A stretch of DNA of 62,048 nucleotides, counting the filler. It is 3 parts of 3 records of this genome, joined end to end, with 100 filler letters (N's around TTAATTAATTAA, not from the genome) between each part and the next. Parts side by side here need not be neighbours in the genome. Positions count along the whole stretch, not along the records: positions 1 to 23,121 come from SRR2962707_3336; 2 more parts are not named here. One strand, written 5' to 3'. The notes below the pieces were generated by a model. It made no database searches. It was not told the DNA's origin and worked only from the letters and a program-made list of their open reading frames with translations. Shown here piece by piece: positions 6,407-54,006 of this stretch. Every line of letters starts with the position of its first letter. Position 1 is the first letter of the stretch. A program made the position numbers and the translations under genes.

Positions 6407-7893
6407 CTTTTAAGGCCTAATGCTGCTAACCTCAGGTGACCGATAATATCTGAAGCTTGAATCCAATTTGATTCCAACTGAAGAACTGCCTCATCTCCAG
6501 CAAGTCCGTGAAGGTAAACGCCTAGTTTCAAGGCATCGAAAGGCTTTAGGCCCTGAGCCAGAAAAGAGGCAACTACACCTGTCAAAACATCCCCACTTCC
6601 GGCAGTAGCCATGGAAGGATTCCCTGTTGGATTAAAGTGGATTTCGCCGGAAGTATTGCAGACCGCAGAATAGGCTCCTTTCAGAACCATATTCAATTGA
6701 TATTCCTTACAAAACCCTTGCAGCATGTTGAGTTTTTCAAAATCATCGCTCCACGGACCAACCAGGCGCTTAAACTCGCCTGGATGCGGGGTTAGAATGG
6801 ATTCTTTAGGTAGCAGTTTTAGTAATTCTTTGTCCTCTGACAAAATATTGATCCCATCCGCATCTACAACCAGGGGCTTTTCAGCTGCTCCCAACATTCT
6901 TCTGACTGCCTCCTTTGTCACTTTTGAAGTACCTAGTCCAGGTCCAATTGCAATGGTATCTTCCGATACTTGAATGGAGGCAATAAAGTCTTCACCCTGA
7001 TCTTCAATAACCATTGCTTCAGGAATGGATACCTGCAATATTTGCACACCGCACTTAGGCACTTGCACATTGACCAAACCTACACCCGTCTTAAATGCAG
7101 CTCTTGTACATAAAACAGAAGCGCCCATCTTTCCTTTGCTCCCGGAAACAATGAGCAACTTTCCAACCTGATTCTTGTGCGCAAACTTATTTCTATGAGG
7201 AAGTAACACTTTGACATCTTCCACCTCAGTAAAATGATAGGTAGTTGGTAGATTCTGGACGAATTGGTTATCTAATCCGATATCTAGGATTCTGAATTCG
7301 CCAACATACTTATGATTCTCTGGCTGAAAGAAGGCCAATTTTGGTACCTGAAATGAAAAGGTATAATCTGGTGTAAAAACAATCGAATCCTTAGGAACAG
7401 CTTTTTCAGCAAACAGTCCTGAAGCAATGTCTATCGCAATTCGTTGACTCTTTTGTTTGTTTAAGTATTTGATCAATTCTCCATAAAGACCTTCAATAGG
7501 TCTTGATAATCCCGAGCCAAACAAACCATCAATGATGATGTCATTTGGATCACACTTTGGAAAATCATTTGGAGATTCTAATGGCTGATATTGCTGAGTT
7601 CTATTCAGATTGACTAGGAAATCAGGAGAACCATTCTCAGTATTTCCTGTAATAAAAACATCCACCTTCCATCCCCTTTCTCTCAGAATCCTTCCAATCG
7701 CCAGTCCGTCTCCTCCATTGTTACCAGTGCCACAAAAAATCTTAACGGGCCTCTTCTCTGGGTGAAGTCCAAGGAATTTGGTAACAAACGCATTGCTAGC
7801 CCGCTCCATCAAATCAATAGAAGCGATGGGTTCGTTTTTGATCGTGTACTGATCTGCTTCTCTGATTTGCTGGGATGTGAGAACCTGGATCAT
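6403..7893 (-). CDS. nnr: Bifunctional NAD(P)H-hydrate epimerase/dehydratase
   Basis: YjeF N-domain (CGTGNNGGDG, DGLFGSG) plus kinase-like C-domain (GPGLG, TPHPGEF, AGSGDVL). Confidence 0.93.
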   Translation of the reverse strand: MIQVLTSQQIREADQYTIKNEPIASIDLMERASNAFVTKFLGLHPEKRPVKIFCGTGNNGGDGLAIGRILRERGWKVDVFITGNTENGSPDFLVNLNRTQQYQPLESPNDFPKCDPNDIIIDGLFGSGLSRPIEGLYGELIKYLNKQKSQRIAIDIASGLFAEKAVPKDSIVFTPDYTFSFQVPKLAFFQPENHKYVGEFRILDIGLDNQFVQNLPTTYHFTEVEDVKVLLPHRNKFAHKNQVGKLLIVSGSKGKMGASVLCTRAAFKTGVGLVNVQVPKCGVQILQVSIPEAMVIEDQGEDFIASIQVSEDTIAIGPGLGTSKVTKEAVRRMLGAAEKPLVVDADGINILSEDKELLKLLPKESILTPHPGEFKRLVGPWSDDFEKLNMLQGFCKEYQLNMVLKGAYSAVCNTSGEIHFNPTGNPSMATAGSGDVLTGVVASFLAQGLKPFDALKLGVYLHGLAGDEAVLQLESNWIQASDIIGHLRLAALGLKS

Positions 7894-9104
7894 CGGTCTA
7901 CTTCACCCATGACAAAATCCAATGATCCCACAATAGCAAAAAGGTCGGCAAGCATGCTTCCTTTACTTATCTCTGACAAAACAGACAAATTGCAAAAACT
8001 CGGGCCTCTTGATTTGCACCTAAACGGCTGATCGGATGTTCCATCAGCTCGGAAAAAGAACCCCAGTTCTCCTTTAGGATTTTCAGCTCGGACGTATAAG
8101 TCTTTGGCTTTCGGACGGATTTTCTTCGGAACCATGGCTCTGGGATCAAACTCCCTGGTTCGTTTATGATCTCCTAGCAGTTGCTCCACACATTGCTCAA
8201 TGATACGAATCGATTCCCAACATTCCTGATACCGAACCCAATTCCTATCCCAGCAATCCCCAACAGTTCCTACTTCTCCCTTTCCAACAGGGATATCAAA
8301 TTCCAGCTCGGGATAGACACTGTATCCATCCACTTTCCTCAAATCAAATTTCAATCCTGATGCTCTCAAGCATGGACCTGTAATCCCGGCATTGATGGCT
8401 AAATCACGATTCAATACACCAACGTTCGCGGTACGCTCTATGAAGATTTTATTGGAGATGAGCAGCTTTTCAGTATCTCTAAGTTTAGGCTTCAGGTAGT
8501 CAACAAATTCTTTGGCTCGCTCTTCAAAGCCTACCGGAAGATCATAAAACAATCCTCCTACCCAAATGTAGTTGTACAGCATTCTTGCACCACTTGCCCA
8601 CTCCAGCATCCTTAAAATATGCTCTCTGTCGCGCATCATCCATAGAAATGGAGTAACCGCACCGATATCCATACCATACGTTCCAATCGCCACAAAATGG
8701 GAAGCCAGTCGGTTTAGTTCTGCAACCAGTACCCGTATATACTCTACTCGTTTGGGAAGTTCCTGATCAATCCCTAGCATCTTCTCCACGCCCATCACAA
8801 ACGCCCATTCGTTGTTCATAGCCGCTACATAATCCATACGGTCAGTGTATGGGATTACTTGATTGTACGCCAACGATTCTGCATGTTTTTCAAAGCATCG
8901 GTGCAAATAACCAATATGTGGAACCACGTCAACTACAATCTCCCCATCAGTAACCACCTCCAAACGTAGTACCCCGTGGGTTGCCGGGTGTTGAGGGCCA
9001 ATATTGATGATCATCTCTTCTGTGCGAAGAGCACTTTCTCTATACTTTAGGGGCTCAGACCTATTTAATGGAGAATTGAGAATTGAAGATTGAGAATTTT
9101 CCAT
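7890..9104 (-). CDS. nuoD: NADH-quinone oxidoreductase subunit D
   Basis: GPQHPATHGVLRL, GYLHRCFEK, ENPKGE and C-terminal GSLDFVMGEVDR. Confidence 0.95.
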   Translation of the reverse strand: MENSQSSILNSPLNRSEPLKYRESALRTEEMIINIGPQHPATHGVLRLEVVTDGEIVVDVVPHIGYLHRCFEKHAESLAYNQVIPYTDRMDYVAAMNNEWAFVMGVEKMLGIDQELPKRVEYIRVLVAELNRLASHFVAIGTYGMDIGAVTPFLWMMRDREHILRMLEWASGARMLYNYIWVGGLFYDLPVGFEERAKEFVDYLKPKLRDTEKLLISNKIFIERTANVGVLNRDLAINAGITGPCLRASGLKFDLRKVDGYSVYPELEFDIPVGKGEVGTVGDCWDRNWVRYQECWESIRIIEQCVEQLLGDHKRTREFDPRAMVPKKIRPKAKDLYVRAENPKGELGFFFRADGTSDQPFRCKSRGPSFCNLSVLSEISKGSMLADLFAIVGSLDFVMGEVDR

Positions 9105-9117
9105 TTCAATTCATTTT
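9067..9117. repeat. Heptamer tandem array downstream of four-helix-bundle gene A, overlapping its stop and the nuoD 5' end
   Basis: Minus strand reads aattctc-aatcttc-aattctc-aattctc; imperfect inverted partner of 9457-9493. Confidence 0.8.
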
Positions 9118-9480
9118 GGATGATTTAATGATTGAAATAAGAATTCTCTTCAATTCAGTAGACATTTGAAGTAAATTCTCCATGCTACCATTCCCAAGAG
9201 AAGACTCATTAATTAGTCGCAACCAGTAATGAGTTTCATGTGCTTCTTTGTTCGCGATTGCAAGTTTGTGAACAAAATCTGCTTTTGATTCTGCTTGCTG
9301 TGCTTCCTCAGACAATGCCCCAATAGCCGTTGCTGATCTTAGCAATTGTTTTGACAGAACATATTCTTTCTGCTCTATCTGCAGGTATCTGGTGAATTGA
9401 ATAATCAGCAATGAAAATTCAAAACTCTTTTCCAACAGTGGATTTGGTTTCTGGTTAATTTTCAATTCTGCATTATCCAT
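9106..9480 (-). CDS. Four helix bundle protein (23S rRNA IVS protein / TIGR02436-like), copy A
   Basis: KSFEF...EYVLSKQLLRSATAIGA..EEAQQAESKADFVHKLAIANKEAHETHYWL. Lies between nuoC and nuoD. Start ATG 9480 or TTG 9486. Confidence 0.9.
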   Translation of the reverse strand: MDNAELKINQKPNPLLEKSFEFSLLIIQFTRYLQIEQKEYVLSKQLLRSATAIGALSEEAQQAESKADFVHKLAIANKEAHETHYWLRLINESSLGNGSMENLLQMSTELKRILISIIKSSKMN

Positions 9481-9493
9481 TATCAATTCATTA
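9457..9493. repeat. Heptamer tandem array at the 5' end of four-helix-bundle gene A
   Basis: Minus strand reads taa-tgaattg-ataatgg-ataatgc-agaattg-aaaatt directly from the nuoC stop. Confidence 0.8.
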
Positions 9494-9973
9494 ATATTTT
9501 ACTTTCACTTCGTGATATGTTTCCTGCTCCTCATAATCCTTTCTCAATGGATATCCTTCCCAGTCTTCTGGCAAAAGAATTCTTCTAAGATCCGGATGAT
9601 TCAAAAATTGAATCCCTAATAAATCATAAGCTTCTCGCTCATGCCAATCTGCTGCTTTCCAAATTTTCGACACTGACTCTATCTCGGTATTACTTCTATC
9701 CAACTTCACCTGGATCATCAAGTGGAGATCAAACGGAATGCTGTACAAATTATAGATCACCTCCATGGTATTCTCCTCAGGCCCATTGTCTATACCAGTC
9801 AGACACGACAATGAGTCGAAATAGGTCTTTTCATGGGCATGAAGAAATTCACAGACCTTGATTAAATATTCTGAATCAATCTGAATGGTCCCGGGAGTTG
9901 ACTCAGGATTGAAACCCAGAATAGCCTCGGGAAAGCTGGATTCGATCAATACCTTTATCTCCTCAAACTGCAT
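9491..9973 (-). CDS. nuoC: NADH-quinone oxidoreductase subunit C
   Basis: [35 protein letters not shown]. Confidence 0.95.
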
Positions 9974-10502
9974 TCTTTTCCTGCATTAGTTTCTCCAGGC
10001 CCTTAGGTCTTAAAATAGACTCTGTCCTGATTTTCTCCTGAAGCTTTAAGAAGCCTCCAATCAACGCTTCCGGTCGTGGCGGACATCCAGGTACGTATAC
10101 ATCGACAGGAATTACCCGATCCACTCCCTTAAGTACATGATAGCCATGTTCCCAATAAGGTCCACCGCAATTAGCACATGACCCCATAGAAATCACATAG
10201 CGTGGCTCAGCCATTTGCTCATATAATCTTTTAATTCGATCAGCCATTTTAAAAGTGACTGTACCGGATACTATCATAACATCTGCTTGTCGAGGAGAAT
10301 TCCTTGGAATAACACCAAATCGGTCCAGGTCATAAGCGGAAGATGCAGTTGACATGAACTCGATTGCGCAGCAAGCCAATCCAAATCCAACAGGCCACAG
10401 GCTACTGAGTCTCGCCCAATTAAGGAGATCATCGAGCTTAGAGACAATGATTCCTCCCTCGCCTGATTTTAGACCCTCCAATTGAATTTTATTCTGACTC
10501 AT
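9963..10502 (-). CDS. nuoB: NADH-quinone oxidoreductase subunit B
   Basis: [30 protein letters not shown]. Confidence 0.96.
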
Positions 10503-10963
10503 CTGGATTCAAATTTAGCGTACGCGCTCGATGGAATTTTAGATTTAAAGTCGGATCCCTTTGGTTTAGGACGAACCCAGTCTAACATCCCTTTTGCCCA
10601 TACATAAGCCAGGCCTACAAGTAGAATACCAATGAAAATAAATGTCTCGATCATAGAGAACTTTGCCCATAATCCATTGCTTTGAACAATCAACTCCTTA
10701 TCCCCAAAGACGGTAGCCCATGGAAAAAGGAAGACTAATTCGGCTTCAAAAAGAAGAAATATGAGTGCAATGACATAGAACCGAACATTGAACTGACCCC
10801 AGGCGGTACCGGATGGCTCCTCCCCTGATTCATAAGTAGTTTGTTTTTCCGGATTGGGTCGATTTGGCCTGAGAATCCTACCAACTAGCAGGGTAATCAT
10901 CAGGAATCCAATTCCACCAACAATGAAGAGTAAAACGGTTCCAAATCCACTGATTTCCATCAT
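10499..10963 (-). CDS. nuoA: NADH-quinone oxidoreductase subunit A
   Basis: Three TM helices, YESGE and [14 protein letters not shown]. Confidence 0.93.
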
Positions 10964-11014
10964 AACGGGAAATTACCCAATAATTAGGATTCAGCTATTT
11001 TCTACGAATGGTTT

Positions 11015-11644
11015 TTAGAATTTAAGCGGATCTAAATGCTTGAAATGACCATTTTGCTTGATCCTTTCTTGTGCAGAATGAGCTCGTTCAAGAGCCGGGA
11101 TTAATCGATGCAAATGTTCGAGGACAAATTCCAATCGCTCATTTTCACTTTGAAGCTCAAGGAGTTTATACTCTTCTTCAGGCTTCAATCCGATCTTATG
11201 TCCCACGTCGTAAACACACTTGATTGAGGCAACATCAGGCACATTTGTTTCCCCGAGCCAGTTGAAGAGTTGGGCACACAATTCTTTGAATTCAATCAGC
11301 AGATTAAAATCTCTCGAGTCATCAGAAGGTGGTAAAAAATCCACTTCGCCACCTGCGTATATTTTTTCACCCCAAGGATTCCAAAAGTCCTTCACATTGA
11401 AGCGTCTAAGCGCTTTCGTCTTGATATCCATTCTTCCATCGTCGTACTTTTTAGTCACCTCGACTATCTCTACCTCAGTTCCCAATTCTATTTTATTCAA
11501 AACATATGAGGGAATACCGAATGTGCCAGATGCTTCGAGGCAATCATTAATTAGTTGCTTATATCGAGGCTCGAACACATGAAGATTAACCGATTCCCCG
11601 GGAAAGGCGACAATGTTTAATGGAAAAAGTGGCAGTTTATTCAT
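11015..11644 (-). CDS. LON peptidase substrate-binding domain protein (stand-alone)
   Basis: LPLFPL...FPGE..LHVFEPRY motif; no AAA or protease domain. Confidence 0.88.
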   Translation of the reverse strand: MNKLPLFPLNIVAFPGESVNLHVFEPRYKQLINDCLEASGTFGIPSYVLNKIELGTEVEIVEVTKKYDDGRMDIKTKALRRFNVKDFWNPWGEKIYAGGEVDFLPPSDDSRDFNLLIEFKELCAQLFNWLGETNVPDVASIKCVYDVGHKIGLKPEEEYKLLELQSENERLEFVLEHLHRLIPALERAHSAQERIKQNGHFKHLDPLKF

Positions 11645-11727
11645 TTACAATCAGTCTTAGCAATTCATTTGTTTTTGCTTACCCATTATTTTCAACCCAC
11701 CCGAATCGAAATAGTTTGGTACTTTCG

Positions 11728-12210
11728 ATGGATATGAAAATCATGAAGATCAACAAAGGAAAGACACTGCCATTACCCTTTCGGTTTGTTGGAGCAGTCA
11801 TTGTTGGCATATCGGTGGTAAAAACCATGCAATCACTCAGTGAACCCTGGTCAATCATTATTGCGATTGTTCTTTCCATGTTGCTACCAGCTCTTTGGTT
11901 TGCCTCAGATCTGATTGTCATAGACATGGAAAAAAACCAGATTTTTGATGGGTACTGGGTAATGGGGTTCCGGATTGGAAAACCGGTTTCATTTCAATCC
12001 ATTGAAAAAATCTATTTGAATAAAGTGAAGACCAAGCAAACCATGTATTCTCTGGCTAACAACCAAAATGTTGTGACCAACCTTGAATATCAAGCCTACC
12101 TTAAAACTGATACTGGAGAAACCTTTTTTCTTTTTAGTCATCCTCTTGAAGAGCGTGCTGAAGAGAAGTTGACAAAAATCAGGAAGAAGCTTGGCCTTGA
12201 ATCTGCATAA
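11728..12210 (+). CDS. Hypothetical membrane protein (two N-terminal TM helices)
   Basis: ORF fills the gap, has a hydrophobic pair and a soluble tail. Start could be ATG 11728, 11734 or 11743. Confidence 0.65.
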   Translation: MDMKIMKINKGKTLPLPFRFVGAVIVGISVVKTMQSLSEPWSIIIAIVLSMLLPALWFASDLIVIDMEKNQIFDGYWVMGFRIGKPVSFQSIEKIYLNKVKTKQTMYSLANNQNVVTNLEYQAYLKTDTGETFFLFSHPLEERAEEKLTKIRKKLGLESA

Positions 12211-12227
12211 AAAAGTCTGGTGATGGT

Positions 12228-12235
12228 TAGTTTTG
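12228..12235 (+). promoter_or_regulatory. Bacteroidota -7 promoter box (TAnnTTTG) upstream of paaE
   Basis: TAGTTTTG ending 19 nt before the paaE ATG. Confidence 0.55.
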
Positions 12236-12254
12236 CCGAACCCAAAAATTGATC

Positions 12255-13319
12255 ATGGCAAAATTCCATACCCTAACGGTTAAGAATATTGAGCGACCAA
12301 CCGATGAATCGGTTGCTGTAACTTTCGACATCCCCGACCACCTTACTGAGGAGTTTAACTTCATCCAGGGACAGCACCTGACCCTGAAAAAAGATATCGA
12401 TGGAGAAGACACCAGAAGATCTTATTCGATCTGTTCTTGCCCTCTCAATAATGAACTCACTGTCGCAATCAAGAAATTAGAAGGTGGCAAATTCTCCACC
12501 TATGCCAATGATCAATTGCAGGTTGGAGACGAAATTGAAGTGATGCCGCCTCATGGTCATTTTTATGTGCCTCTGGATGCTAAAAATGAAAATTCCTACG
12601 TGGCATTTGCCAGCGGAAGTGGTATCACTCCTATCATTTCAATCATTGAAACAACTCTTAGGACAGAGCCAAATAGCGAATTCACTTTGATTTATGGGAA
12701 CCGTAAGACTGCAAGTATCATCTTCCATGAGCGTCTTGAAGCATTAAAAAATAGGTTCATGGGTAGATTTAGTATCTACCATATTCTGAGTCAGGAACGA
12801 CAGGAATCTGATCTATTTAATGGTCGTATTGATTCGGAAAAAGTAAAAGCATTCGGACGCATTTTCTTCGATTCATCAAAAGTGGATCATTTTTTCACCT
12901 GTGGACCTGAGCAAATGATGCTAGCGGTAGAGGAAGAACTCAAAGCGCTTGGAGTAGCAGATGAGAAAATTCATCTGGAATTGTTTACCTCCCCTGTTGG
13001 AAAATTGGGTGAGGAAAGGAAAGAAACAACACATACAAAAGCACAAGCTGAAATCACAGTTGTCTTGGATGGTAACAGTGTGACGTTCCCGTATGATTCT
13101 GATGAATCGATACTTGATGTGGCCTTCCAAAATGGAATGGATTTGCCGTATGCATGTAAAGGTGGTGTGTGCAGTACCTGTGTCGCTTGCGTTCAGGAAG
13201 GAGAAGTGGAGATGGATATCAACTATGCACTTGAACCTGACGAACTGGAAAGAGGACTTGTTCTGACCTGTCAGTCAAGACCCAAGACAGAAAAAGTGAA
13301 ACTCACCTTTGATGTGTAA
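12255..13319 (+). CDS. paaE: Phenylacetyl-CoA epoxidase reductase subunit
   Basis: RRSYSI FAD motif, GSGITP, C-terminal 2Fe-2S ACKGGVCSTC...LTCQ. Confidence 0.93.
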   Translation: MAKFHTLTVKNIERPTDESVAVTFDIPDHLTEEFNFIQGQHLTLKKDIDGEDTRRSYSICSCPLNNELTVAIKKLEGGKFSTYANDQLQVGDEIEVMPPHGHFYVPLDAKNENSYVAFASGSGITPIISIIETTLRTEPNSEFTLIYGNRKTASIIFHERLEALKNRFMGRFSIYHILSQERQESDLFNGRIDSEKVKAFGRIFFDSSKVDHFFTCGPEQMMLAVEEELKALGVADEKIHLELFTSPVGKLGEERKETTHTKAQAEITVVLDGNSVTFPYDSDESILDVAFQNGMDLPYACKGGVCSTCVACVQEGEVEMDINYALEPDELERGLVLTCQSRPKTEKVKLTFDV

Positions 13320-13350
13320 TACGAACAAAGAGCAAGTGGAGCTTGTTAAG

Positions 13351-13358
13351 TAACTTTG
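13351..13358 (+). promoter_or_regulatory. Bacteroidota -7 promoter box upstream of paaA
   Basis: TAACTTTG ending 17 nt before the paaA ATG. Confidence 0.5.
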
Positions 13359-13375
13359 AATAAAGCATTGATAAT

Positions 13376-14314
13376 ATGGATATTAAAAGCTTAGAGGATC
13401 GATTTAATGAGAAGATCGATGAGGACATCCGAATCGAACCGAAAGACTGGATGCCCGAGAATTATCGAAAGACATTGATTCGTCAGATCTCGCAGCATGC
13501 TCACTCTGAAATCGTTGGAATGCTTCCTGAAGCTAACTGGCTGACCAGGGCTCCAACATTGAGAAGAAAGGCAGCTGCACTGGCAAAAGTTCAGGATGAG
13601 GCCGGACATGGATTATATCTCTACAGTGCTTGCGAAACACTAGGGATAGATCGAGACACCTTGCTGGACGAACTACACACCGGAAAAGCAAAATATTCAA
13701 GCATTTTCAACTATCCAACCCTGACCTGGGCGGATATGGGTGCCATTGGATGGCTGGTTGATGGAGCAGCCATCATGAACCAGGTGCCGCTTTGCCGTAC
13801 CTCTTATGGTCCGTATGCGAGAGCCATGATTAGGGTATGTAAAGAAGAGTCTTTTCACCAACGACAAGGATATGAGATCATGCTTACCCTTTGCAAGGGA
13901 TCCGAAGAGCAGAAGAAGATGGCTCAAGATGCGTTGAACAGATGGTGGTGGCCATCGCTGATGATGTTTGGGCCTACCGACAAAGATTCCAAACACACCG
14001 AACAGTCGATGAGATGGAGAATTAAGCGATTCACCAATGATGAGTTACGTCAAAAATTCGTAGATGCTACTGTCCCACAAGCTGAACTCATAGGCTTAAA
14101 AGTTCCTGATAATGATTTGAAATGGAATGAAGAAAGAGGGCATTACGATTTTGGCGAAATCAACTGGGATGAATTCTTCAATGTGATCAAAGGAAATGGT
14201 CCATGCAACAAGCAGCGTCTGGATGCACGCAAAAAAGCATGGGATAATGGTGCATGGGTACGGGAAGCAGCTACCGCTCACGCAGAGAAAAAAGCAAAAC
14301 AAAAAGCAGCATAA
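13376..14314 (+). CDS. paaA: Phenylacetyl-CoA epoxidase subunit A
   Basis: [40 protein letters not shown]. Confidence 0.96.
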
Positions 14315-14324
14315 TTATACGAAT

Positions 14325-14606
14325 ATGAAAAACTGGCCACTCTGGGAAATTTTTATCCGAAGTAAAGCAGGCTTGAATCACAAGCACGTAGGAAGCCTTC
14401 ATGCTGCTGATGCAGAAATGGCTATTCAGAACGCAAGAGATGTTTACACCCGAAGAAATGAAGGAGTAAGCATATGGGTTGTAGAATCAAAATACCTGAC
14501 TGCCTCAGATCCTGATGATTCTGATCCATTGTATGAGCCGGCTAAAGACAAGGTATATCGTCACCCGACTTTTTACAATTTGCCAGATGAAGTGAAACAT
14601 ATGTAA
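14325..14606 (+). CDS. paaB: Phenylacetyl-CoA epoxidase subunit B
   Basis: WPLWEIFIRS..GL.HKHVGSLHA.D..MA..NARDVYTRRNEGVSIWVV; true start ATG 14325. Confidence 0.95.
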   Translation: MKNWPLWEIFIRSKAGLNHKHVGSLHAADAEMAIQNARDVYTRRNEGVSIWVVESKYLTASDPDDSDPLYEPAKDKVYRHPTFYNLPDEVKHM

Positions 14607-14640
14607 TTGGTGAATAGTGATTTGCTAACTAGTTAATTGG
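14604..14640. repeat. 7/8-nt tandem array upstream of four-helix-bundle gene B
   Basis: taattgg-tgaatag-tgatttg-ctaactag-ttaattgg, beginning at the paaB stop. Confidence 0.7.
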
Positions 14641-15021
14641 ATGTCTCAGAATTTGCAAGATCTGGAAGTTTGGAAAAAATCTAGAGAGTTTAGAAATGAA
14701 ATTTCGAAGCTATGCAAAACATTTCCAGCAGTTGAGAAATTTAGACTAATCGATCAGTTGATAAGGTCATCCAGATCTATTTCTGCCAATATTGCTGAAG
14801 GACATGGGAGGTTCCATTTTCAGGAAAACATTCAATTCTGCAGGCAAGCAAGAGGAAGTATTACAGAAACATTTGATCACTTAACAGTTGCAGTAGATGA
14901 GGGATTCGTAAAGGTTTTGGAGTTTGAGAGATTAAATCAGCAATTAGAAGTACTAGCCAAAATGCTTAATGGATATATCAATTATTTGCAAAAACGAAAA
15001 AATGAGGAACTAATCCACTGA
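14641..15021 (+). CDS. Four helix bundle protein, copy B
   Basis: DLEVWKKS...EKFRLIDQLIRSSRSISANIAEGHGR...ARGS..ET...KMLNGYI. Lies between paaB and paaC. Confidence 0.93.
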   Translation: MSQNLQDLEVWKKSREFRNEISKLCKTFPAVEKFRLIDQLIRSSRSISANIAEGHGRFHFQENIQFCRQARGSITETFDHLTVAVDEGFVKVLEFERLNQQLEVLAKMLNGYINYLQKRKNEELIH

Positions 15022-15047
15022 TAAACTAATGAACGATTTAACCAAGT
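15008..15047. repeat. 8-nt tandem array downstream of gene B (inverted relative to 14604-14640)
   Basis: aactaatc-cactgata-aactaatg-aacgattt-aaccaagt; contains gene B stop and paaC ATG. Confidence 0.7.
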
Positions 15048-15784
15048 ATAACTATACTCTGCAACAAGCTGATAACTGTCTAATTCTAGGCCAAAGACTG
15101 GCTGAATGGTGTGGGCACGGGCCTGTCCTGGAGCAGGACATTGCAATGACCAATATTGCGCTCGATCTAATCGGTCAGGCAAGGATGCTCTATCAATATG
15201 CTGCAGAAGTTCAAGGAGAAGGAAAATCAGAAGATGATGTGGCCTACCTGAGAGATGCATGGGGATATAAAAATGTACTCTTGGTAGAACAGCCTAATGG
15301 TGACTTTGCTCAGACCATACTCCGACAATTTTTATTCGACTCGCACAATTGTTATTTCTACGAGTCATTGATGAACAGCTCAGATGAAACCCTTGCTGCA
15401 ATAGCTGCTAAATCACATAAAGAAGCACTTTACCATCTTAAATGGAGTGGGGATTGGGTAATTCGATTAGGAGATGGTACTGAAGAAAGTAACCAGCGAA
15501 TAACAAATGCTCTTGAGGAATTATGGTCGTATGCAGGTGAGCTCACTATGCCAAGTGAAACGGACATCACGGCTCTCAAGGAAGGATATGGCATTAACCT
15601 GGAAGAAATAAAGACCAAAAGAGAGGCTAAAATTCAAGAAGTCTTTGATGAAGCAACCTTGAAAGTGCCGGAAGGTTCGTATTCACATAAAGGAGGTAAA
15701 GAAGGAAAGCACACAGAGCATCTTGGTTACATCCTGGCCGATCTTCAGTTCCTTCAAAGAGCTTATCCTGGTCTAGAGTGGTAA
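15029..15784 (+). CDS. paaC: Phenylacetyl-CoA epoxidase subunit C
   Basis: LILGQRLAEWCGHGPVLEQDIA..NIALDLIGQAR, G.HTEHLGYILA.LQFLQRAYPG..W. Confidence 0.95.
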   Translation: MNDLTKYNYTLQQADNCLILGQRLAEWCGHGPVLEQDIAMTNIALDLIGQARMLYQYAAEVQGEGKSEDDVAYLRDAWGYKNVLLVEQPNGDFAQTILRQFLFDSHNCYFYESLMNSSDETLAAIAAKSHKEALYHLKWSGDWVIRLGDGTEESNQRITNALEELWSYAGELTMPSETDITALKEGYGINLEEIKTKREAKIQEVFDEATLKVPEGSYSHKGGKEGKHTEHLGYILADLQFLQRAYPGLEW

Positions 15785-15785
15785 A

Positions 15786-16166
15786 ATGAATCTCAATCAG
15801 GTCACCGTTCCATCCCTAGATGTACCAAAATCAATTGATTTTTATAAAGCACTTGGCTTAACACTTATTGTCCATACACATGATAAGTATGCACGATTTG
15901 AATGCCCCAATGGTGATTCTACATTTTCAATACACTACGTTGAAAAGATAGCAGAAGGAGAAAAACCGGTGATCTACTTTGAATGCGATGATCTAGACAA
16001 ACAAGTCCAAAATCTCCTAGATCAGGGAATAGAATTCACTGAATTACCAAACGACAAGGGCTGGGCTTGGCGAGAAGCGCACTTGTTCGATCCTTACGGA
16101 AATCATCTTATCCTTTTCAAAGCCGGCAAGAACAGAAAAAATCCACCTTGGAGATTAAAGGAATAA
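15786..16166 (+). CDS. VOC (glyoxalase/bleomycin resistance) family protein
   Basis: SIDFY..LG, YFECDDLD, W.WREA.L.DP.GN. Confidence 0.88.
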   Translation: MNLNQVTVPSLDVPKSIDFYKALGLTLIVHTHDKYARFECPNGDSTFSIHYVEKIAEGEKPVIYFECDDLDKQVQNLLDQGIEFTELPNDKGWAWREAHLFDPYGNHLILFKAGKNRKNPPWRLKE

Positions 16167-16372
16167 TGGATTACTTGATTCAAACTGCCGAAATCAGAGC
16201 ATCAGAATCGAATAGAGGTCATGGAATTGGAACTTCGCTGATGACTTTTTGCTTAAATAAAGCAAAGGAGTTAGGTTATAAAAATATCATCTTGCAGGGA
16301 ACAGATGATGGTTTAGGTATTTACCAAAAGCATGGATTTAAAGAAGTCACCACCTATTTTGAATATGCATGA
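16166..16372 (+). CDS. Short (68 aa) GNAT acetyltransferase fragment
   Basis: ATG overlaps the VOC stop (TAATG). Acetyl-CoA motif RGHGIGT.L and IY.KHGF present; N-terminal half missing. Confidence 0.65.
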   Translation: MDYLIQTAEIRASESNRGHGIGTSLMTFCLNKAKELGYKNIILQGTDDGLGIYQKHGFKEVTTYFEYA

Positions 16373-16830
16373 CAATAGATAAACATCAAATCAATCAATT
16401 ATTAGAACAAGTTACGGATCCGGAAATTCCTGTTATTTCTATTCTTGATCTGGGAATCGTAAGGGACATAAAACTGAATGGAAAACAGGTTGAGGTGATC
16501 ATTACTCCCACTTATTCAGGCTGTCCGGCCATGCTTGAAATTGAAAAAAACATCAATAACATCCTCAAGCAAAATGGTATTGCAGAGGTGAAAGTAACAA
16601 CCGTCCTCTCCCCTGCCTGGACAACAGATTGGATGTCGCAAAAAGGCATGCACCAGTTGAAAGAATACGGCATTGCACCACCGAATCCAACAGCCCCTGA
16701 AGATGTCAATTGTCCCGCTTGTGGATCAGAAAACACCACTCTGGTTAGCCAATTTGGTTCAACAGCATGTAAGTCATTATACAAATGCAATGATTGTCTG
16801 GAGCCCTTTGATTATTTCAAATGTCATTAG
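16369..16830 (+). CDS. paaD: Phenylacetyl-CoA epoxidase subunit D
   Basis: V.DPEIPVISILDLGIVR, TPTYSGCPA, CPACGS...FGSTACK..Y.C..CLEPFDYFKCH. Confidence 0.95.
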   Translation: MTIDKHQINQLLEQVTDPEIPVISILDLGIVRDIKLNGKQVEVIITPTYSGCPAMLEIEKNINNILKQNGIAEVKVTTVLSPAWTTDWMSQKGMHQLKEYGIAPPNPTAPEDVNCPACGSENTTLVSQFGSTACKSLYKCNDCLEPFDYFKCH

Positions 16831-16867
16831 TTGGTAATTAGTAGATTAGTGAAATAGTTATTAGTTA
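16826..16867. repeat. 8-nt tandem array upstream of four-helix-bundle gene C
   Basis: attagtt-ggtaattagt-agattagt-gaaatagt-tattagt-ta; includes the paaD TAG stop. Confidence 0.8.
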
Positions 16868-17233
16868 ATGAAACTTGTCGATCTGGATATATGGAAAAAA
16901 TCAAGAGTATTTCGAAATGATATTAGCCAAATGGCGAGAGCATTACCGGAGGTAGAAAAATACAAGCTTGTCGACCAAATCATTAGGTCATCACGATCAG
17001 TAACAGCTAATATTGCAGAAGGTCATGGCAGATACCATTACCAAGAAAATATTCAATTTTGTAGAATAGCAAGAGGAAGCCTCATTGAGACTTTCGATCA
17101 CTTGACAGTTGCTTTAGATGAAAAGTATATCGTTCGGGAAAAATTTGATGAACTCTTTTTGAAATATGAAGAATTGATCAAAATGATCAACGGATATATT
17201 ACTTATCTAAACAAAAGGAAAGTTGATAGCTAA
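16868..17233 (+). CDS. Four helix bundle protein, copy C
   Basis: Same motifs as copy B (about 74 of 120 aligned residues identical by manual count). Lies between paaD and paaG. Confidence 0.93.
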   Translation: MKLVDLDIWKKSRVFRNDISQMARALPEVEKYKLVDQIIRSSRSVTANIAEGHGRYHYQENIQFCRIARGSLIETFDHLTVALDEKYIVREKFDELFLKYEELIKMINGYITYLNKRKVDS

Positions 17234-17266
17234 TACTTTTTAACTCATTAACCAATCTACTAAACC
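17228..17266. repeat. 8-nt tandem array downstream of gene C (inverted relative to 16826-16867)
   Basis: aactcatt-aaccaatc-tactaaac; accaatctactaa matches the reverse complement of upstream ttagtagattagt at 12 of 13 positions. Confidence 0.8.
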
Positions 17267-17269
17267 CCT

Positions 17270-18049
17270 ATGTCTAATACGCTCCAACTTTCCCAGAAAG
17301 ACAACTTAGGTATTATCACCTTCAATCGACCTGATGTATTCAACAGTTTCAATAAGGAACTGGCATTAGCTGTTCAGAAGGCATTAAATGACTACTCAAG
17401 CGATCCTTCCATTAGAGCAATCATGCTGACAGGAAATGGTAAGGCATTCTGTGCAGGTCAAGATTTGCAGGAAGCCATCGCCGATAATGGGTTAGAAATT
17501 GAGCAAATTGTGGAGGAGCATTACAATCCGATCATTCGACAGATCAGAAGCATTGAAAAGCCAATCGTTGCTGCCATCAATGGAGTTGCTGCTGGAGCGG
17601 GTGCCAATATTGCGCTTGCATGTGATGTGACCATTGCCACAGCATCTGCCTCATTCATTCAGGCATTTAGCAAAATCGGATTAGTCCCTGATAGTGGTGG
17701 TACTTTCACTTTGCCAAGAATCATCGGGTTCCAAAAAGCATCTGCTTTGATGATGCTAGGTGATAAAGTATCTGCAGAAGAGGCCGAGAAAATGGGAATG
17801 ATTTACAAAGTGGTTCCTGATGACCAATTTGCGGAAGAAACAGAAGCACTTGCATTGAAACTTGCGAACATGCCTACCAAGGGGTTAGCCTATACCAAGC
17901 ATTTGCTGAATCAGTCATTCACCAATGATCTTGATCAACAACTGGAGTTGGAAAAAGAGTGGCAATTCAAAGCCACTGAGACTTACGACTACAAAGAAGG
18001 AGTCAACGCCTTTATGGAGAAACGTAAACCGGAATTTAAAGGAGAATAA
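17270..18049 (+). CDS. paaG: Enoyl-CoA hydratase family, ring 1,2-epoxyphenylacetyl-CoA isomerase
   Basis: FCAGQDL, NGVAAGAGANIALACD, IGLVPDSGGT; paa context. Confidence 0.88.
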   Translation: MSNTLQLSQKDNLGIITFNRPDVFNSFNKELALAVQKALNDYSSDPSIRAIMLTGNGKAFCAGQDLQEAIADNGLEIEQIVEEHYNPIIRQIRSIEKPIVAAINGVAAGAGANIALACDVTIATASASFIQAFSKIGLVPDSGGTFTLPRIIGFQKASALMMLGDKVSAEEAEKMGMIYKVVPDDQFAEETEALALKLANMPTKGLAYTKHLLNQSFTNDLDQQLELEKEWQFKATETYDYKEGVNAFMEKRKPEFKGE

Positions 18050-19206
18050 TGCCAAAGCTAAGTGTAATAGGTGCCGGAACAATGGGCACAGGAATTGCCC
18101 AGGTCGCTGCGACGGCAGGATGGGATGTAGTCATCAACGACACCAATAGTGAGATACTGGAAAAATCATCCGATAGCCTCGTGAAGGTGATGTGCCGGTT
18201 GGTAGAGAAAGAAAAGATTGATCAAAAGACTGCTGATGGCATCTTAGGAAGAATAGACTTTACGGACGATCAGCAATACTTTGAAAACTCAGATCTGGTT
18301 ATTGAAGCAATTGTCGAAAACCTGGAAATCAAGAAAAAGGTATTTACCGCTGTAGAAGAAATCGTGAGAGAGGATACCATAATTGCTTCCAACACTTCTT
18401 CTCTATCCCTTGCATCAATTGGTTCCTCTTTGAAAAATCCTTCAAGGTTTGTGGGAATCCATTTTTTCAATCCGGCTCCATTGATGCCATTAGTTGAAAT
18501 CATTCCTGCGGTTCAAACAGAGAATTCTATTACAACCCAAGCCAAAGATTGGGTAGATAGCTGGGGGAAATTGACGGTTTTGGCAAAAGACACCCCGGGT
18601 TTCATTGTAAATCGTGTGGCTCGTCCATTTTATGGTGAGTCCCTACGAATCTATGAAGAGGGCATTGCCGATTTTACAACCATTGACTGGGCTATGAAAG
18701 AACTTGGTGGTTTTAGAATGGGCCCATTTGAGTTGATGGATTTCATCGGTAACGATATTAATTATACAGTTACAGAGACTGTGTTTCAATCCTTCTTTTA
18801 TGACCCTCGCTACCGACCTTCTTTTACTCAAAAACGAATGTCAGAAGCGGGATTTTTGGGGAGAAAATCAGGTAGAGGATATTACAATTATGCGGAGGGA
18901 GCTAGCAAACCTAAACCAACGGAGGATAAGGCGCTTGGTCAGCAAATTTTAGATCGTGTACTGGCTATGTTGATTAATGAAGCCGCTGATGCATTGTTTT
19001 TAAACATAGCAAGCAGAGATGATATCGATTTAGCCATGACCAAAGGTGTCAACTATCCAAAAGGATTACTGAAATGGGCTGACGAAAAAGGAATTGATCG
19101 GTGCGTTCAAAAAATGGATGAGCTATACGATGAATATCGTGAAGACCGGTATAGATGTAGTCCTCTTTTGAGAAGAATGAAAGAAAAAGGAAGCACTTTT
19201 TACTGA
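18049..19206 (+). CDS. paaH: 3-hydroxyacyl-CoA (3-hydroxyadipyl-CoA) dehydrogenase
   Basis: GAGTMGTG, SNTSS, HFFNP, PGFIVNR; duplicated C-terminal domain. Confidence 0.9.
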   Translation: MPKLSVIGAGTMGTGIAQVAATAGWDVVINDTNSEILEKSSDSLVKVMCRLVEKEKIDQKTADGILGRIDFTDDQQYFENSDLVIEAIVENLEIKKKVFTAVEEIVREDTIIASNTSSLSLASIGSSLKNPSRFVGIHFFNPAPLMPLVEIIPAVQTENSITTQAKDWVDSWGKLTVLAKDTPGFIVNRVARPFYGESLRIYEEGIADFTTIDWAMKELGGFRMGPFELMDFIGNDINYTVTETVFQSFFYDPRYRPSFTQKRMSEAGFLGRKSGRGYYNYAEGASKPKPTEDKALGQQILDRVLAMLINEAADALFLNIASRDDIDLAMTKGVNYPKGLLKWADEKGIDRCVQKMDELYDEYREDRYRCSPLLRRMKEKGSTFY

Positions 19207-19207
19207 T

Positions 19208-19621
19208 ATGACCAAATCCGAAAAAATAGTTGCTGAGATGATGGCAAAAGACACCTTTAGTCAGTGGCTTGGTGTTGAGGTATTGGAAGTTATGGAAGGT
19301 TTTGCCAAAATTAAAATGACGGTAAGGAATGAGATGCTAAACGGACACCTGGTAGCTCATGGTGGTATTTCATTTTCTCTTGCCGACAGTGCCTTTGCAT
19401 TTGCATCCAATTCTCATGGACAGAAAGCGGTTTCTATTGAAACATCAATCAATCATATCAAACCGGTTATTGAAGGAGATGAATTAATAGCCACCGCAGA
19501 AAAGGAAAGTATCTCTAAAAGCTTGGGACAGTACATCGTACGTGTTACCAGAGGAGATGAGTTGGTTGGGCTTTTCAAAGGAGTTGTTTTTCGTAAACAG
19601 GATACCTGGGATATTAGTTAA
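19208..19621 (+). CDS. paaI: Hotdog-fold phenylacetyl-CoA thioesterase
   Basis: MLNG...AHGG..FSLADSAFAFASNS. Confidence 0.9.
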   Translation: MTKSEKIVAEMMAKDTFSQWLGVEVLEVMEGFAKIKMTVRNEMLNGHLVAHGGISFSLADSAFAFASNSHGQKAVSIETSINHIKPVIEGDELIATAEKESISKSLGQYIVRVTRGDELVGLFKGVVFRKQDTWDIS

Positions 19622-19729
19622 AAGATTAGTTAAATAGTAAAATAGTTGATTAGTTAAGTATGAACGAATGTGCAATGGCATACAAGAGGTCCTTTCAACC
19701 AAATCACTGATCAACTAATAAGCCAAGAA
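19613..19729. mobile_element. Putative empty/deleted four-helix-bundle cassette (inverted 8-nt arrays around a 16-codon mini-ORF)
   Basis: Left agattagt-taaatagt-aaaatagt-tgattagt; right tcaaccaa-atcactga-tcaactaa-taagccaa; same repeat type as the flanks of copies B and C. Mobility is inferred. Confidence 0.6.
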
Positions 19730-20821
19730 ATGAACATACAAATACCTGATCATATTGCCGCCATAAGAAGTTACCAGCCTGGTAAGACCATACCTCAACT
19801 GCAAGAGGAGTACGGATGGGAAAATGTGGCCATCCTTTGGAATAATGAAAATACGCTTGGGTATTCTCCAAAATCAAAGCAGGCAGTCATAGATGCTTAC
19901 GAATCCATTAATTACTACCCCGATCCTGTAGGCAGAGATTTAAAAAAAGCACTAGCTGAAAAGTACGGAAAGAAAGAGTCAGAGATCTTTTTGGGGAATG
20001 GTTCAGAATCCGTTTTGATGCAAACTATTCGGGCTTTGTGCTCCGGAGATGATGAATTCCTTACCTCTGAAGGTGGATTCGTTATTATCTACAATTGGGC
20101 ACGAATAAATAATGTTCGTTGTGTATCCATGCCAATGACCGAAGGTTATGGATTTGATCTTGAAGCAATTAAAAGCAGGATCAACAGAAACACCAAGATC
20201 ATCTACCTCGCAAATGTGAACAATCCTACCGGCACGATGATCACCAGCCAGGAATTGGATAGTTTCATGCAATATGTGCCTGATCATGTTCTTGTGATTG
20301 TTGACGAAGCTTATTTCGAATATTCCGAAGCGCTACATCCTGATTTTCCAAATTCGCTAAAAATGGATTATCCAAATATTTTAACCCTCCGAACATTCAG
20401 TAAGGCTTATGGTATTGCAGGGGTGAGACTCGGATTTGGAATCGGACATGAAAAGGTCATTGATGCACTGAATAAGGTAAAGCTCACCTTCGAACCAACT
20501 GCACTTGCTCAAGCAGCCGGGATCGGAGCACTTCAGGATACGGAGTTTTTGAAAATGTCAATAGACAACAACACAGATCAACTAAGATATTTCTATCAGG
20601 AATTTGATCGTCTGGGCATCAGCTATGTTCCTTCTTATGCCAATTTTATTATGACCGTATGGAAAGATAAGGATGAGGTCATGAAGGTGTTCAATGCTTT
20701 GATGGAAAGAGGTGTTTTGGTTCGTCCTCTTTATGACCCCATTAGTCACTGCATCCGAATTTCGGTTGGTAAACCAGAGGAGAATCAACAGTGTATTTCT
20801 GCTTTGGAAGAAATCCTCTAA
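19730..20821 (+). CDS. hisC: Histidinol-phosphate/aromatic aminotransferase (class II PLP)
   Basis: NEN, YPD, GNGS, NNPTG, DEAYFEY, RTFSKAYGIAGVRLG; start ATG 19730. Confidence 0.8.
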   Translation: MNIQIPDHIAAIRSYQPGKTIPQLQEEYGWENVAILWNNENTLGYSPKSKQAVIDAYESINYYPDPVGRDLKKALAEKYGKKESEIFLGNGSESVLMQTIRALCSGDDEFLTSEGGFVIIYNWARINNVRCVSMPMTEGYGFDLEAIKSRINRNTKIIYLANVNNPTGTMITSQELDSFMQYVPDHVLVIVDEAYFEYSEALHPDFPNSLKMDYPNILTLRTFSKAYGIAGVRLGFGIGHEKVIDALNKVKLTFEPTALAQAAGIGALQDTEFLKMSIDNNTDQLRYFYQEFDRLGISYVPSYANFIMTVWKDKDEVMKVFNALMERGVLVRPLYDPISHCIRISVGKPEENQQCISALEEIL

Positions 20822-21875: not shown

Positions 21876-23120
21876 TTATAATCTTGATACTTTAAATAAT
21901 TCTTTTCTTCCTTCTTTGGACAGTGAGTTTTTCACTACCCCGTAAAATACTTCCAAGCCATCGCCTGAAAGGGCTACTGCGAACAGTAGATATGTAAGAT
22001 CCAATTTGACACTGTAATAATCCATCAGATAAATCATGATGTAAATAAGCCCTACAAACTCAATCAACTGAATCACCTTTGTGATTCCATCATACCACTT
22101 GGGGAGCTTCTTATAAATCCATGAAAACATCATGATGTTAACAAAGAGTCCAAAAAACATCAACAATATTTTCTGAAATTCACTCAACTGAAAGATATAA
22201 TCTTCATTCAAGATCATAGAAACAATGTTGGCATGGACAACTCCTCCATACATGTCTGGAAAGGCCCTTCCTATGTAAACTTCATTTAAGGGAGTGAAGA
22301 ACTTATCTTCGAAATTCTCCCTGTCTCCCAAGTACTCACCTAAGAAACAGAAAATAACCACTTTCCCTTCAATGATCTCCGGTACATAGTTGCTCGTGTA
22401 GACATCAGGCACATCCAAAGCATAATACTTATTACCAAACTTTGTAGCACCATAGTCAAGGACATTCCCACGATAATTAATCACTTCAACTTCATTTCCT
22501 CTGTCAATGAATTGCTGTGCCTTTGCTTCATCATAATAAGAAGCGAGTTTAACACCAAGTGCATGATGAGTTTTCCCACTCACATCGGTAAGCTGAGGAA
22601 AAAATTCCCTACACATTTTCAAATCTTCCTGCACTTCGGCATCTGTAATCAGATTCGCAAAAGCTGAATCCGAGTTCCATGTAAACATGGGGTAGGATGT
22701 TCTAAGAGAATCTGAAATATCATCTGAGTCAAATTCATTGAAAAGCTGGGTCACCATAACGAGGTTCTCTACTCTTCCCAAAGCTTCCATCAGCATGATA
22801 TCTCCTAATGTATCCTCATGAGGAAAATCGAAAAAGGTATCTACTCCTATAACCGCCGGGTTATGTTGATTGATTGAATCAATCATCATTCCAATACTTG
22901 CTCTCGGTTCCAATCCAATATTAACCAGCACCACACGTTCATCTGCGATTGGATCATCTAAAAGTTGAGAGAAGTAGATGTCGGTAAACTCCATGTCACC
23001 GAATGCCTCTCCAATTGGATCAAATATGTCAAAGACCTTAAACGCTGAAACCGACGCTAACATCAGCATCAGCCCTATTATAAAAAATGTTCCCAGGATT
23101 ACATCCCGCCAGAATCTTCT
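21876..23120 (-). CDS. CHASE2-domain membrane protein, 5' end cut by contig edge
   Basis: VVLVNIG, PAVIGVD.FF, INYRG, D.FFTP, MYGGVVHANIVSMIL followed by three TM helices. Frame is open to 23120 (RRFWRDVILGT...). Confidence 0.8.
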   Translation of the reverse strand, partial: RRFWRDVILGTFFIIGLMLMLASVSAFKVFDIFDPIGEAFGDMEFTDIYFSQLLDDPIADERVVLVNIGLEPRASIGMMIDSINQHNPAVIGVDTFFDFPHEDTLGDIMLMEALGRVENLVMVTQLFNEFDSDDISDSLRTSYPMFTWNSDSAFANLITDAEVQEDLKMCREFFPQLTDVSGKTHHALGVKLASYYDEAKAQQFIDRGNEVEVINYRGNVLDYGATKFGNKYYALDVPDVYTSNYVPEIIEGKVVIFCFLGEYLGDRENFEDKFFTPLNEVYIGRAFPDMYGGVVHANIVSMILNEDYIFQLSEFQKILLMFFGLFVNIMMFSWIYKKLPKWYDGITKVIQLIEFVGLIYIMIYLMDYYSVKLDLTYLLFAVALSGDGLEVFYGVVKNSLSKEGRKELFKVSRL

Positions 23121-23121
23121 A

Positions 23122-23221
23122 NNNNNNNNNNNNNNNNNNNNNNNNNNNNNNNNNNNNNNNNNNNNTTAATTAATTAANNNNNNNNNNNNNNNNNNNNNNN
23201 NNNNNNNNNNNNNNNNNNNNN
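23122..23221. other. Artificial contig linker
   Basis: N44-TTAATTAATTAA-N44 (stops in all six frames); abrupt GC shift and genes truncated on both sides. Confidence 0.98.
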
Positions 23222-53975: not shown

Positions 53976-54006
53976 GCCTGTTCCTTAAACCAGTTCGTTA
54001 GGCTGT

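Follow-up and report, generated by a model that had tools for sequence, protein, structure and literature searches.

Three genes for four-helix-bundle proteins of the PF05635/TIGR02436 family, here called H1, H2 and H3, stand between genes of the nuo and paa operons in a stretch of DNA of 62,048 nucleotides (the window, meaning the whole stretch that was analysed). The family itself, the fold of its proteins and their occurrence in the intervening sequences (IVSs) of ribosomal RNA are already known. Comparison with relatives now indicates that such a gene, together with short arrays of 7-8-nt units that flank it in inverted orientation, very probably forms one heritable unit, a cassette residing at operon junctions. 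The arrangement is real and general, and it is apparently undescribed: searches of the full-text literature, outside which lie subscription-only papers and database notes, found no description of PF05635-family cassettes at operon junctions with inverted arrays. The evolutionary picture that accompanies it, one of patchy occupancy, decay and allele replacement, is well supported. The three genes and the nuo neighbours are placed as follows.

9106-9480, minus strand: H1, four-helix-bundle gene (PF05635/TIGR02436) between nuoC and nuoD, by profile match
9491-9973, minus strand: nuoC, upstream neighbour of H1 (Pfam Complex1_30kDa)
7890-9104, minus strand: nuoD, downstream neighbour of H1 (Pfam Complex1_49kDa)
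14641-15021, plus strand: H2, four-helix-bundle gene between paaB and paaC, by profile match
16868-17233, plus strand: H3, four-helix-bundle gene between paaD and an enoyl-CoA hydratase gene (ECH_1), by profile match

All three genes are present where the original prediction, made from the letters of the window, had placed them. They score 73.4 (H1), 112.6 (H2) and 117 bits (H3) with PF05635, for a curated cut-off of 33.8, and 89.7, 108.8 and 113 bits with TIGR02436, for a cut-off of 24. Each is co-oriented with its two operon neighbours, H1 lying on the minus strand as the nuo genes do. The AlphaFold model obtained for H1 from an 18-row alignment shows four helices, with a mean predicted local distance difference test (pLDDT) score of 91.2. 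Its best fold match is the Bacteroides S23-family protein 2RLD, with a template modelling (TM) score of 0.82-0.94 and 49% identity, and further matches are the Xanthomonas protein 2GSC (TM 0.8), to which H3 is also similar by sequence (E 4.7e-8), and then Avd (4DWL, TM 0.72/0.82), a protein of the diversity-generating retroelements (DGRs); DGR ribonucleoprotein entries are matched as well. The likeness of fold to Avd that had been asserted is therefore borne out by the model, and in its accessible portion a review remarks on the resemblance of PF05635 to Avd (PMC10053308). In the available text of one genome paper, a gene of this kind between gmk and nadD is listed as a “phage element” (PMC5524665).

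Only about 23 kb of the window, which is a composite, belongs to the cassette host. GC content is ~40% up to ~23.2 kb and ~63% beyond, the local value passing from ~0.26-0.30 to 0.55-0.68 at this point (23000-23400). The portion from 24.5 to 44 kb has 98-99% identity to pieces of three contigs from one unrelated genome, and the last 8 kb (54000-62048), with ~50% GC, may come from a third source. By NuoD comparison, the low-GC part is closest to Ekhidna (Cytophagales), at 84-88% identity. The statement that the contig holds no transposase, integrase or reverse transcriptase stands for the open reading frames (ORFs) scanned in 1-23.2 kb, among which none of the three was found; since the window is composite, it reaches only the ~23 kb of host.

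Complete genomes of relatives were used for comparison, their loci being labelled L001 and so on. Five Ekhidna genomes, with 3-7 family members each (seven in the Ekhidna lutea type strain, whose genome holds L022), supplied 23 of 24 copies for analysis (the ORF filter did not pick up one stop-interrupted copy, which was left out), and with the window these make a set of 26 cassettes. A wider draw covered 151 Bacteroidota genomes, 119 of which have PF05635-family matches, with a maximum of 19 per genome. From this draw the 30 best loci were taken, one per genome; 29 gave a central gene, and 28 were scored after one truncated gene was dropped. Flanks were compared by a local pairing score (G-C 3, A-U 2, G-U 1), and 497 other ORFs of at least 150 aa from the same loci served as controls. 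Two other measures were tried and abandoned. RNAduplex energies did not separate matched from mismatched flanks in the nuo set (-19.7 vs -19.2 kcal/mol), because of long internal loops and a shared motif, and shared reverse-complement 6-mers, which did separate them (7.4 vs 4.0), had a high background and were replaced by the local pairing alignment.

Flank complementarity is locus-specific. In the 26 Ekhidna and window cassettes, matched flank pairs have a mean score of 28.5 and mismatched pairs one of 20.8, with none of 10000 permutations as high as the observed sum. The 28 cassettes of the phylum sample separate further (37.5 vs 22.9, again 0/10000), and 16 of them exceed the 95th percentile of mismatched pairs. 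Around the 497 control ORFs the mean is 21.5 and the 95th percentile 29. Both flanks in the phylum sample also have an autocorrelation peak at lag 7, of 0.38 vs ~0.26 in controls, so that the inverted 7/8-nt periodicity that the original prediction expected around genes of this family is indeed higher there than around other genes. Most of the 23 Ekhidna copies carry tandem units peculiar to their locus upstream, and the complement of these units downstream.

That gene and arrays belong together is best seen in two copies of one genome (L179 and L182), which encode 86% identical proteins amid unrelated flanks. Homology between them comes on inside the upstream GTGAGA-type array and goes off inside its downstream complement, spanning a conserved leader and the gene, so the element is bounded by inverted termini. 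With the locus-specific complementarity, this upholds the idea that gene plus inverted arrays make one unit. In each of the two copies the arms stay complementary 4-6 nt past the shared sequence, which may be a lead on the insertion mechanism, one resting on a single pair. Arrays derived from the target, or targeting of hairpin loops, were considered, an idea also prompted by the resemblance of the empty paaB/paaC spacer to an array unit; one pair being insufficient, they are kept as a lead. No direct target duplications were recognised at the boundaries.

In three copy-rich genomes, 29 copies were compared: within-genome paralogues are at most 54% identical except for the 86% pair, so that L179/L182 is the only informative pair on recent transposition there. 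Copies do cluster locally: in three genomes 7 pairs are no more than 3 kb apart, where 0.85 would be expected. The subfamily of L179, L182, L187 and L188 is antisense to both neighbours and has a conserved leader of ~75 nt with a small hairpin, possibly a promoter of its own or an RNA element. Downstream of the gene, L188 and L093/L094 have a direct copy of the upstream array in addition to its complement.

Where do these units reside? Every Ekhidna copy analysed (23/23) is co-oriented with both neighbours and tightly packed, and so are 25 of the 29 phylum-sample copies in orientation. The 58 ORFs that neighbour these 29 cassettes form coupled housekeeping pairs: hydratase/thiolase, E2/E3, cysD/cysN, ftsA/ftsZ, moaE/moaC, hisA/hisF, CoA-transferase A/B, umuD/umuC, HlyD/ABC and nuoC/nuoD. 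No reverse transcriptase, transposase or integrase is found among these 58 scanned ORFs. In the 33 good stems with both neighbours, the median position of the 5′ arm's start is -3 nt relative to the upstream stop, and that of the 3′ arm's end is -1 nt relative to the downstream ATG. The unit therefore sits at stop/start junctions, and since cassette-free alleles of such junctions exist, the claim that it resides there without breaking the operon is supported. In three Ekhidna loci (L084, L091, L098) a cassette lies between an ORF of 336-342 aa for a homocysteine S-methyltransferase and one of ~494 aa with pterin-binding and B12-binding domains, which looks like a methionine synthase gene (metH) split at a domain boundary. 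L157 has the first two methionine synthase domains in one ORF.

The history of the unit can be followed at the nuoC/nuoD junction. Of 80 NuoD loci, 23 without a NuoC match in the locus were left out, and 56 operons plus the window make 57: 21 are occupied by an H1-type gene, 33 are empty, 2 have arrays only and 1 holds a remnant. Many of the empty alleles have overlapping stop and start codons, as in outgroups, in keeping with neighbours described as normally adjacent; at the paa junctions, too, spacers are short in relatives. The arrays-only alleles (L007, L014) have as their sister an occupied allele whose gene is damaged (L015), and the remnant (L009) is the product of an internal deletion. 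Occupancy is confined to a 45-row clade of the NuoCD tree, on which at least 13 occupancy changes are required, 5 of them forced by starred branches. Vertical conservation of the genes at the same junction in all relatives was one part of what would have refuted the original prediction. They are not so conserved, occupancy being patchy, and the cassette-free alleles that it had called for were found at both nuoC/nuoD and paa junctions, along with arrays-only and remnant states.

The 20 full-length nuoC/nuoD occupants (one short copy having been dropped) form one clade with support 91, and their distances correlate with those of the hosts (Mantel r 0.41, 0/5000 permutations as high). The dominant signal therefore is that of a single ancient insertion with subsequent losses. 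Inheritance is mostly vertical, with losses, occasional allele replacement and local copying of old date. Two cases are taken as replacement through conserved flanks. In L026/L031 the flanks are 93-99% identical, the cassette only 50-80% with insertions and deletions, and the synonymous divergence (dS) of the four-helix-bundle gene is 1.84 vs 0.17 for NuoD; in the sister hosts L073 and L079, the four-helix-bundle genes fall in different starred clades. The near-identical genomes of L026 and L031 differ sharply (~2580-3040) only at the nuoC/nuoD cassette, and a nearly identical block of ~70 nt in mid-gene gives a mosaic pattern, which suggests recombination between cassette alleles. The ratio of nonsynonymous to synonymous divergence (dN/dS) of the four-helix-bundle gene is 0.07-0.12 in the 3/7 pairs with unsaturated dS; the protein is under purifying selection.

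A different aspect is seen in the paa operon, of which 13 examples were compared. The paaB/paaC junction is occupied in the window only (1/13), and its spacer is 6 nt in L137 and L139, which have no cassette there. The paaD/hydratase junction is occupied in the window, L137 and L144, the L137 orthologue of H3 being 74% identical, and it has a spacer of 35-37 nt in the cassette-free L147 and L148. At paaA/paaB, L142 carries a stop-interrupted copy and L140 a C-terminal remnant, 87% identical to each other. The H2/H3 clade is thus spread over paaA/paaB, paaB/paaC and paaD/hydratase in different genomes, with ATTAGT-type units at every junction, and array units of the ATTAGT-type clade stand without a gene at the HCDH/thioesterase junctions of L137 and L144, in the manner of those at 19613-19725 of the window. 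Because the copies at paa junctions are 61-74% identical to each other, spread within this operon is old. Taken together, these comparisons show that occupancy is patchy, that a divergent allele now and then takes the place of a cassette, that copies reached nearby junctions in the distant past, and that cassettes decay by internal deletion to hairpins made of arrays only. Another hairpin family, with GTCAT..CGAA-type arms, is seen at paaA/paaB, paaB/paaC and HCDH/thioesterase junctions (L141, L143, L144 and others), and these junctions collect several kinds of hairpin insert. The unrelated genome of high-GC type (G001, contig 4; L001/L002) has a PF05635 gene too, at a distance of ~4 kb from a stretch resembling paaA, with 68% identity to paaA of the window.

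The arrays of the window itself are listed here.

9457-9490, minus strand: H1 5′ arm, GAATTGA-type units, extending over the nuoC stop-proximal spacer and the first 8 H1 codons (inverted pair)
9066-9098, minus strand: H1 3′ arm, period 7, AATTCTC-type on the coding strand, translated as a NuoD N-terminal extension (Tandem Repeats Finder (TRF), inverted pair)
14604-14640, plus strand: H2 upstream spacer, degenerate 7-8-nt units (sequence)
15004-15033, plus strand: H2 downstream spacer, with 2 of the 6 ACTAAT occurrences in 23.2 kb (sequence, hexamer count)
16826-16867, plus strand: H3 5′ array, ATTAGT units ~8 nt apart, beginning 1 nt past the paaD stop
17234-17266, plus strand: H3 3′ arm, the complement of the 5′ array, with its end 7 nt short of the hydratase ATG
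19613-19725, plus strand: gene-less pair at the thioesterase/aminotransferase junction, a period-8 array (19627-19657) with a partly complementary arm (~19700-19722) (TRF, sequence)

H3 is the clear case. Its arms (16838-16860 and 17241-17263, 23 nt, 83% complementary) bracket the gene, its flank-pairing score is 34, and the stem closes the whole ORF in both the minimum-energy and the centroid RNA folds. Of 14 ATTAGT occurrences in 23.2 kb, 4 fall in 16826-16865; TRF does not report the array at score 30. H1 is a moderate one. TRF gives a period-7 array at 9067-9098 (4.6 copies, 80% matches), whose inverted partner at 9457-9482 is 26 nt long and 85% complementary. This 5′ arm overlaps the start codon and first codons of the gene itself, so there is no separate upstream array, and the flank-pairing score is 33 with 30 nt of the gene's 5′ end included and 22 without. 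The downstream array is read as NuoD codons ~3-13, and empty alleles have a shorter NuoD N-terminus. The claim that all three genes are bracketed by inverted arrays able to fold into a stem with the ORF in its loop accordingly keeps its force for H3 and, to a moderate degree, for H1; it has to be given up for H2, whose flanks do not rise above chance. The same gradation holds for closure of the ORF in a stem by terminal inverted repeats. As for tandem heptamer-type repeats, they lie directly upstream of the ORF in H3 and most relatives, across the start and downstream in H1, and are degenerate in H2. The gene-less pair at 19613-19725 folds into a 12-bp stem that is weak (z only -1.26).

Some further features of the host portion may be recorded. 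The two H1 boundaries (9481-9493 and 9104-9115) have the same stop/start motif, a two-codon mini-frame followed by ATGGA; this makes a direct repeat of ~17 nt around the gene that could mediate its deletion. The match of a 101-aa ORF at 16067-16372 to GNAT acetyltransferase profiles is confined to their C-terminal part. From the glyoxalase-like gene to paaD there are 205 nt in the window vs 769 nt in relatives, and the window seems to carry a deletion between the two. One metatranscriptome run (7% of sampled words) gave 20 RNA contigs at 90% likeness, short and mostly 90-99% alike. Most bins have zero or low depth, and one 151-nt piece lies inside H3 (16875-17025). A joint from 16772 to 17432 skips the H3 cassette and also the adjoining end of each neighbour; at 29 nt, the shorter side of this joint is below the reliability guide.

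How could an operon tolerate such an insert? The best explanation of the whole, on balance a probable one, is a promoterless junction cassette with Avd-like cargo and inverted arrays, an operon counterpart of the S23p-type IVS with looping at the RNA level. Its unit, an Avd-like four-helix-bundle gene without a promoter that ends on both sides in inverted arrays of 7-8-nt units, sits in tightly coupled operon pairs, after the stop of the first gene and ahead of the start of the second. Within the polycistronic transcript the arrays would pair and loop the cassette out, thereby bringing the flanking stop and start back together, and the restored proximity would be why the operon tolerates the insert. 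RNase III, the encoded putative pentamer, or both would probably act on the stem of paired arrays. Taken separately, this RNA looping or processing part is tentative and rather doubtful. A wider version is unlikely: the cassettes would be widespread and hitherto undescribed selfish “operon intervening sequences”, each a pentamer gene in the loop of a heptamer-array hairpin that hides itself by RNA looping-out, and the rRNA IVSs would be their rRNA-resident branch. Such elements would enter at stop/start junctions and even at domain boundaries (the split metH), would preserve translational coupling, and would employ their own protein, bound to the array duplex, in processing or in making copies at new sites.

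Several results weigh against the junction cassette with RNA looping. The flanks of H2 are degenerate at best and without a credible stem: no inverted pair longer than 10 nt brackets the gene, 42 of 50 mismatched flank pairs score no lower than the 18 of its own pair, and its fold (z-score +0.95) is no better than those of shuffles. The 3′ arm of H1 lies inside nuoD codons, where cutting would remove the nuoD start. Of the 29 copies in the phylum sample, four do not share the orientation of both neighbours, and in the antisense subfamily the upstream array may lie outside the gene's transcript. Two cassettes of 28 (L164, L168) carry direct, not inverted, flank repeats, and in the nuo set, whose members are mostly similar, matched pairs score 32.7 vs 30.2 for mismatched ones, with 212 of 10000 permutations as high. 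Mismatches in 43 stems comprise 46 G·U and 57 A·C; as G·U does not exceed A·C, wobble pairing gives no sign that the sense RNA is under selection. An element that has the arrays as its ends and is inserted at junctions would account trivially for the stop/start geometry. Lastly, mobility is slow: paralogues are mostly at most 54% identical, and the nuo cassette is one orthologous clade that largely tracks its hosts.

Because the wobble, H1, H2, antisense and geometry results count against a role at the RNA level, the main rival is a DNA-level mobile element, a reading somewhat less likely again than that of selfish intervening sequences. Here the arrays would be multi-site terminal inverted repeats bound and paired by the presumed pentamer, a nuclease or recombinase of the host or encoded in trans would move the unit, and the RNA stem would be incidental. 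Homology from copy to copy ends at the arrays, as it should for such an element, and the L179 and L182 arms are complementary 4-6 nt beyond the shared sequence; the lack of a G·U over A·C excess, the toleration of arrays inside coding sequence, the copies antisense to their neighbours with a leader of their own, and the local clustering of copies, one clade being at three paa junctions, all agree with it. Yet no catalytic gene occurs in the 23 kb or among the 58 neighbour ORFs, no direct target duplications are recognised, within-genome paralogues are old (all but one pair at most 54% identical), copy numbers are low (3-7 per Ekhidna genome), and a pure DNA mechanism does not require the strong co-orientation with transcription.

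It is improbable that the genes are domesticated post-transcriptional regulators or insulators of the operons, with arrays kept as operator sites for the benefit of the host. Purifying selection and the occupation of the same junctions in different hosts (nuoC/nuoD across genera; hydratase/thiolase, HlyD/ABC and umuD/umuC across the phylum sample) would suit this view, but close relatives are cleanly empty, the changes of state number at least 13 and come with remnants and pseudogenes, the operons are functionally unrelated, and divergent alleles replace one another. Still further down, and very improbable, is the notion of ordinary small genes in AT-rich spacers whose low-complexity repeats are inverted by chance. 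H2, with flanks not above chance, and the gene-less stem, with a z of only -1.26, speak for it; the controls, the permutations, the duplicate pair bounded by arrays and the lag-7 periodicity contradict it as a general account.

The family is very common in Bacteroidota, yet its members are annotated only as “four helix bundle protein”. If they are the cargo of a self-contained cassette, this would join three scattered matters, namely the ORFs of rRNA IVSs, heptamers before start codons and Avd-like proteins outside DGRs. The looped-out junction cassette, if true, would offer a testable model of how inserts can be harmless within essential, stoichiometrically coupled pairs such as ftsA/ftsZ, nuoC/nuoD and cysD/cysN. 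It would matter for annotation as well, the arrays accounting for odd N- or C-terminal extensions of neighbour proteins and for at least one split gene.

Among known systems, the DGRs are alike in the fold of their Avd (4DWL, TM 0.72/0.82), a basic pentamer that acts on an RNA stem-loop. According to the accessible part of a preprint, all five protomers of the Avd pentamer take hold of an 11-bp RNA stem-loop, and in DGR RNAs the sequences that lie to either side of the template pair with each other (bioRxiv 10.1101/2023.10.23.563531). Unlike in DGRs, no reverse transcriptase and no template/variable repeats stand beside the genes described here, and a DGR was rejected on anatomy, with no reverse transcriptase in the ORFs of 1-23.2 kb or in the 58 neighbour ORFs of relatives. 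Short tandem repeats near genes are found elsewhere too, the cyanobacterial repeats called STRR being a further case. TAACTGA heptamer repeats occur near start codons in Beggiatoaceae, cyanobacteria and a few Bacteroidetes, including a member of the Cytophagales; the available text on them gives their function as unknown, proposes a post-transcriptional role and describes almost only direct repeats (PMC4679880). They share with the present arrays short tandem 7-nt units within a few nt of start codons. They differ in that one heptamer is common to all, whereas the units here are locus-specific and come in inverted pairs around a gene, and the same portion of that report makes no link to four-helix-bundle genes or to inverted partners (PMC4679880).

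MITEs (small transposable elements with inverted repeats), repetitive extragenic palindromic (REP) hairpins and the terminal inverted repeats of insertion sequences (ISs) resemble the cassettes in their inverted ends and in the gene-less hairpins at gene junctions, and in relatives the same paa junctions hold REP-like hairpins of another sort. The cassettes differ from them in having no transposase, no recognised target duplication, few and old copies, and arms of tandem units that vary between lineages; transposase was absent from the 23 kb and the neighbour ORFs, whole genomes not having been scanned for candidates. An integron cassette was rejected, given repeats on both sides, copies scattered in housekeeping operons and no integrase nearby. 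In life cycle, an analogy can be drawn with homing-endonuclease genes and inteins: a precise site is patchily occupied, intact, degenerate and empty alleles coexist, and alleles are exchanged horizontally at the same site. No nuclease domain is present here, unlike in those elements, and spread probably takes place by flanking homology.

Closest of all are the S23p-type IVSs of 23S rRNA (Leptospira, Coxiella, Xanthomonas and others). An IVS in the strict sense was rejected for the window, where the flanks are protein-coding nuo and paa genes and 8500-20500 has no rRNA match (no Rfam family was matched there, the only hit being a sub-threshold miRNA match regarded as chance). The host RNA is here a polycistronic mRNA, not helix 25/45 of 23S rRNA, the arms often overlap neighbouring coding sequence, and the ORF is under purifying selection, whereas that of the Coxiella IVS is reported, in the accessible text, as decaying and probably untranslated (PMC4990558). 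RNase III excision is known for the IVSs and is a possibility here. In Coxiella, as the same portion of that paper describes, tandem heptamers lie just upstream of the S23p start, a 28-bp stem closes the termini, RNase III cuts at the first repeat, and heptamer copy number varies among strains (PMC4990558). The link to rRNA intervening sequences proves stronger than first stated, the anatomy being shared: the loop encodes the same protein family, heptamers precede the start codon, and the ORF is enclosed by terminal inverted repeats, in the window clearly so for H3 and moderately for H1.

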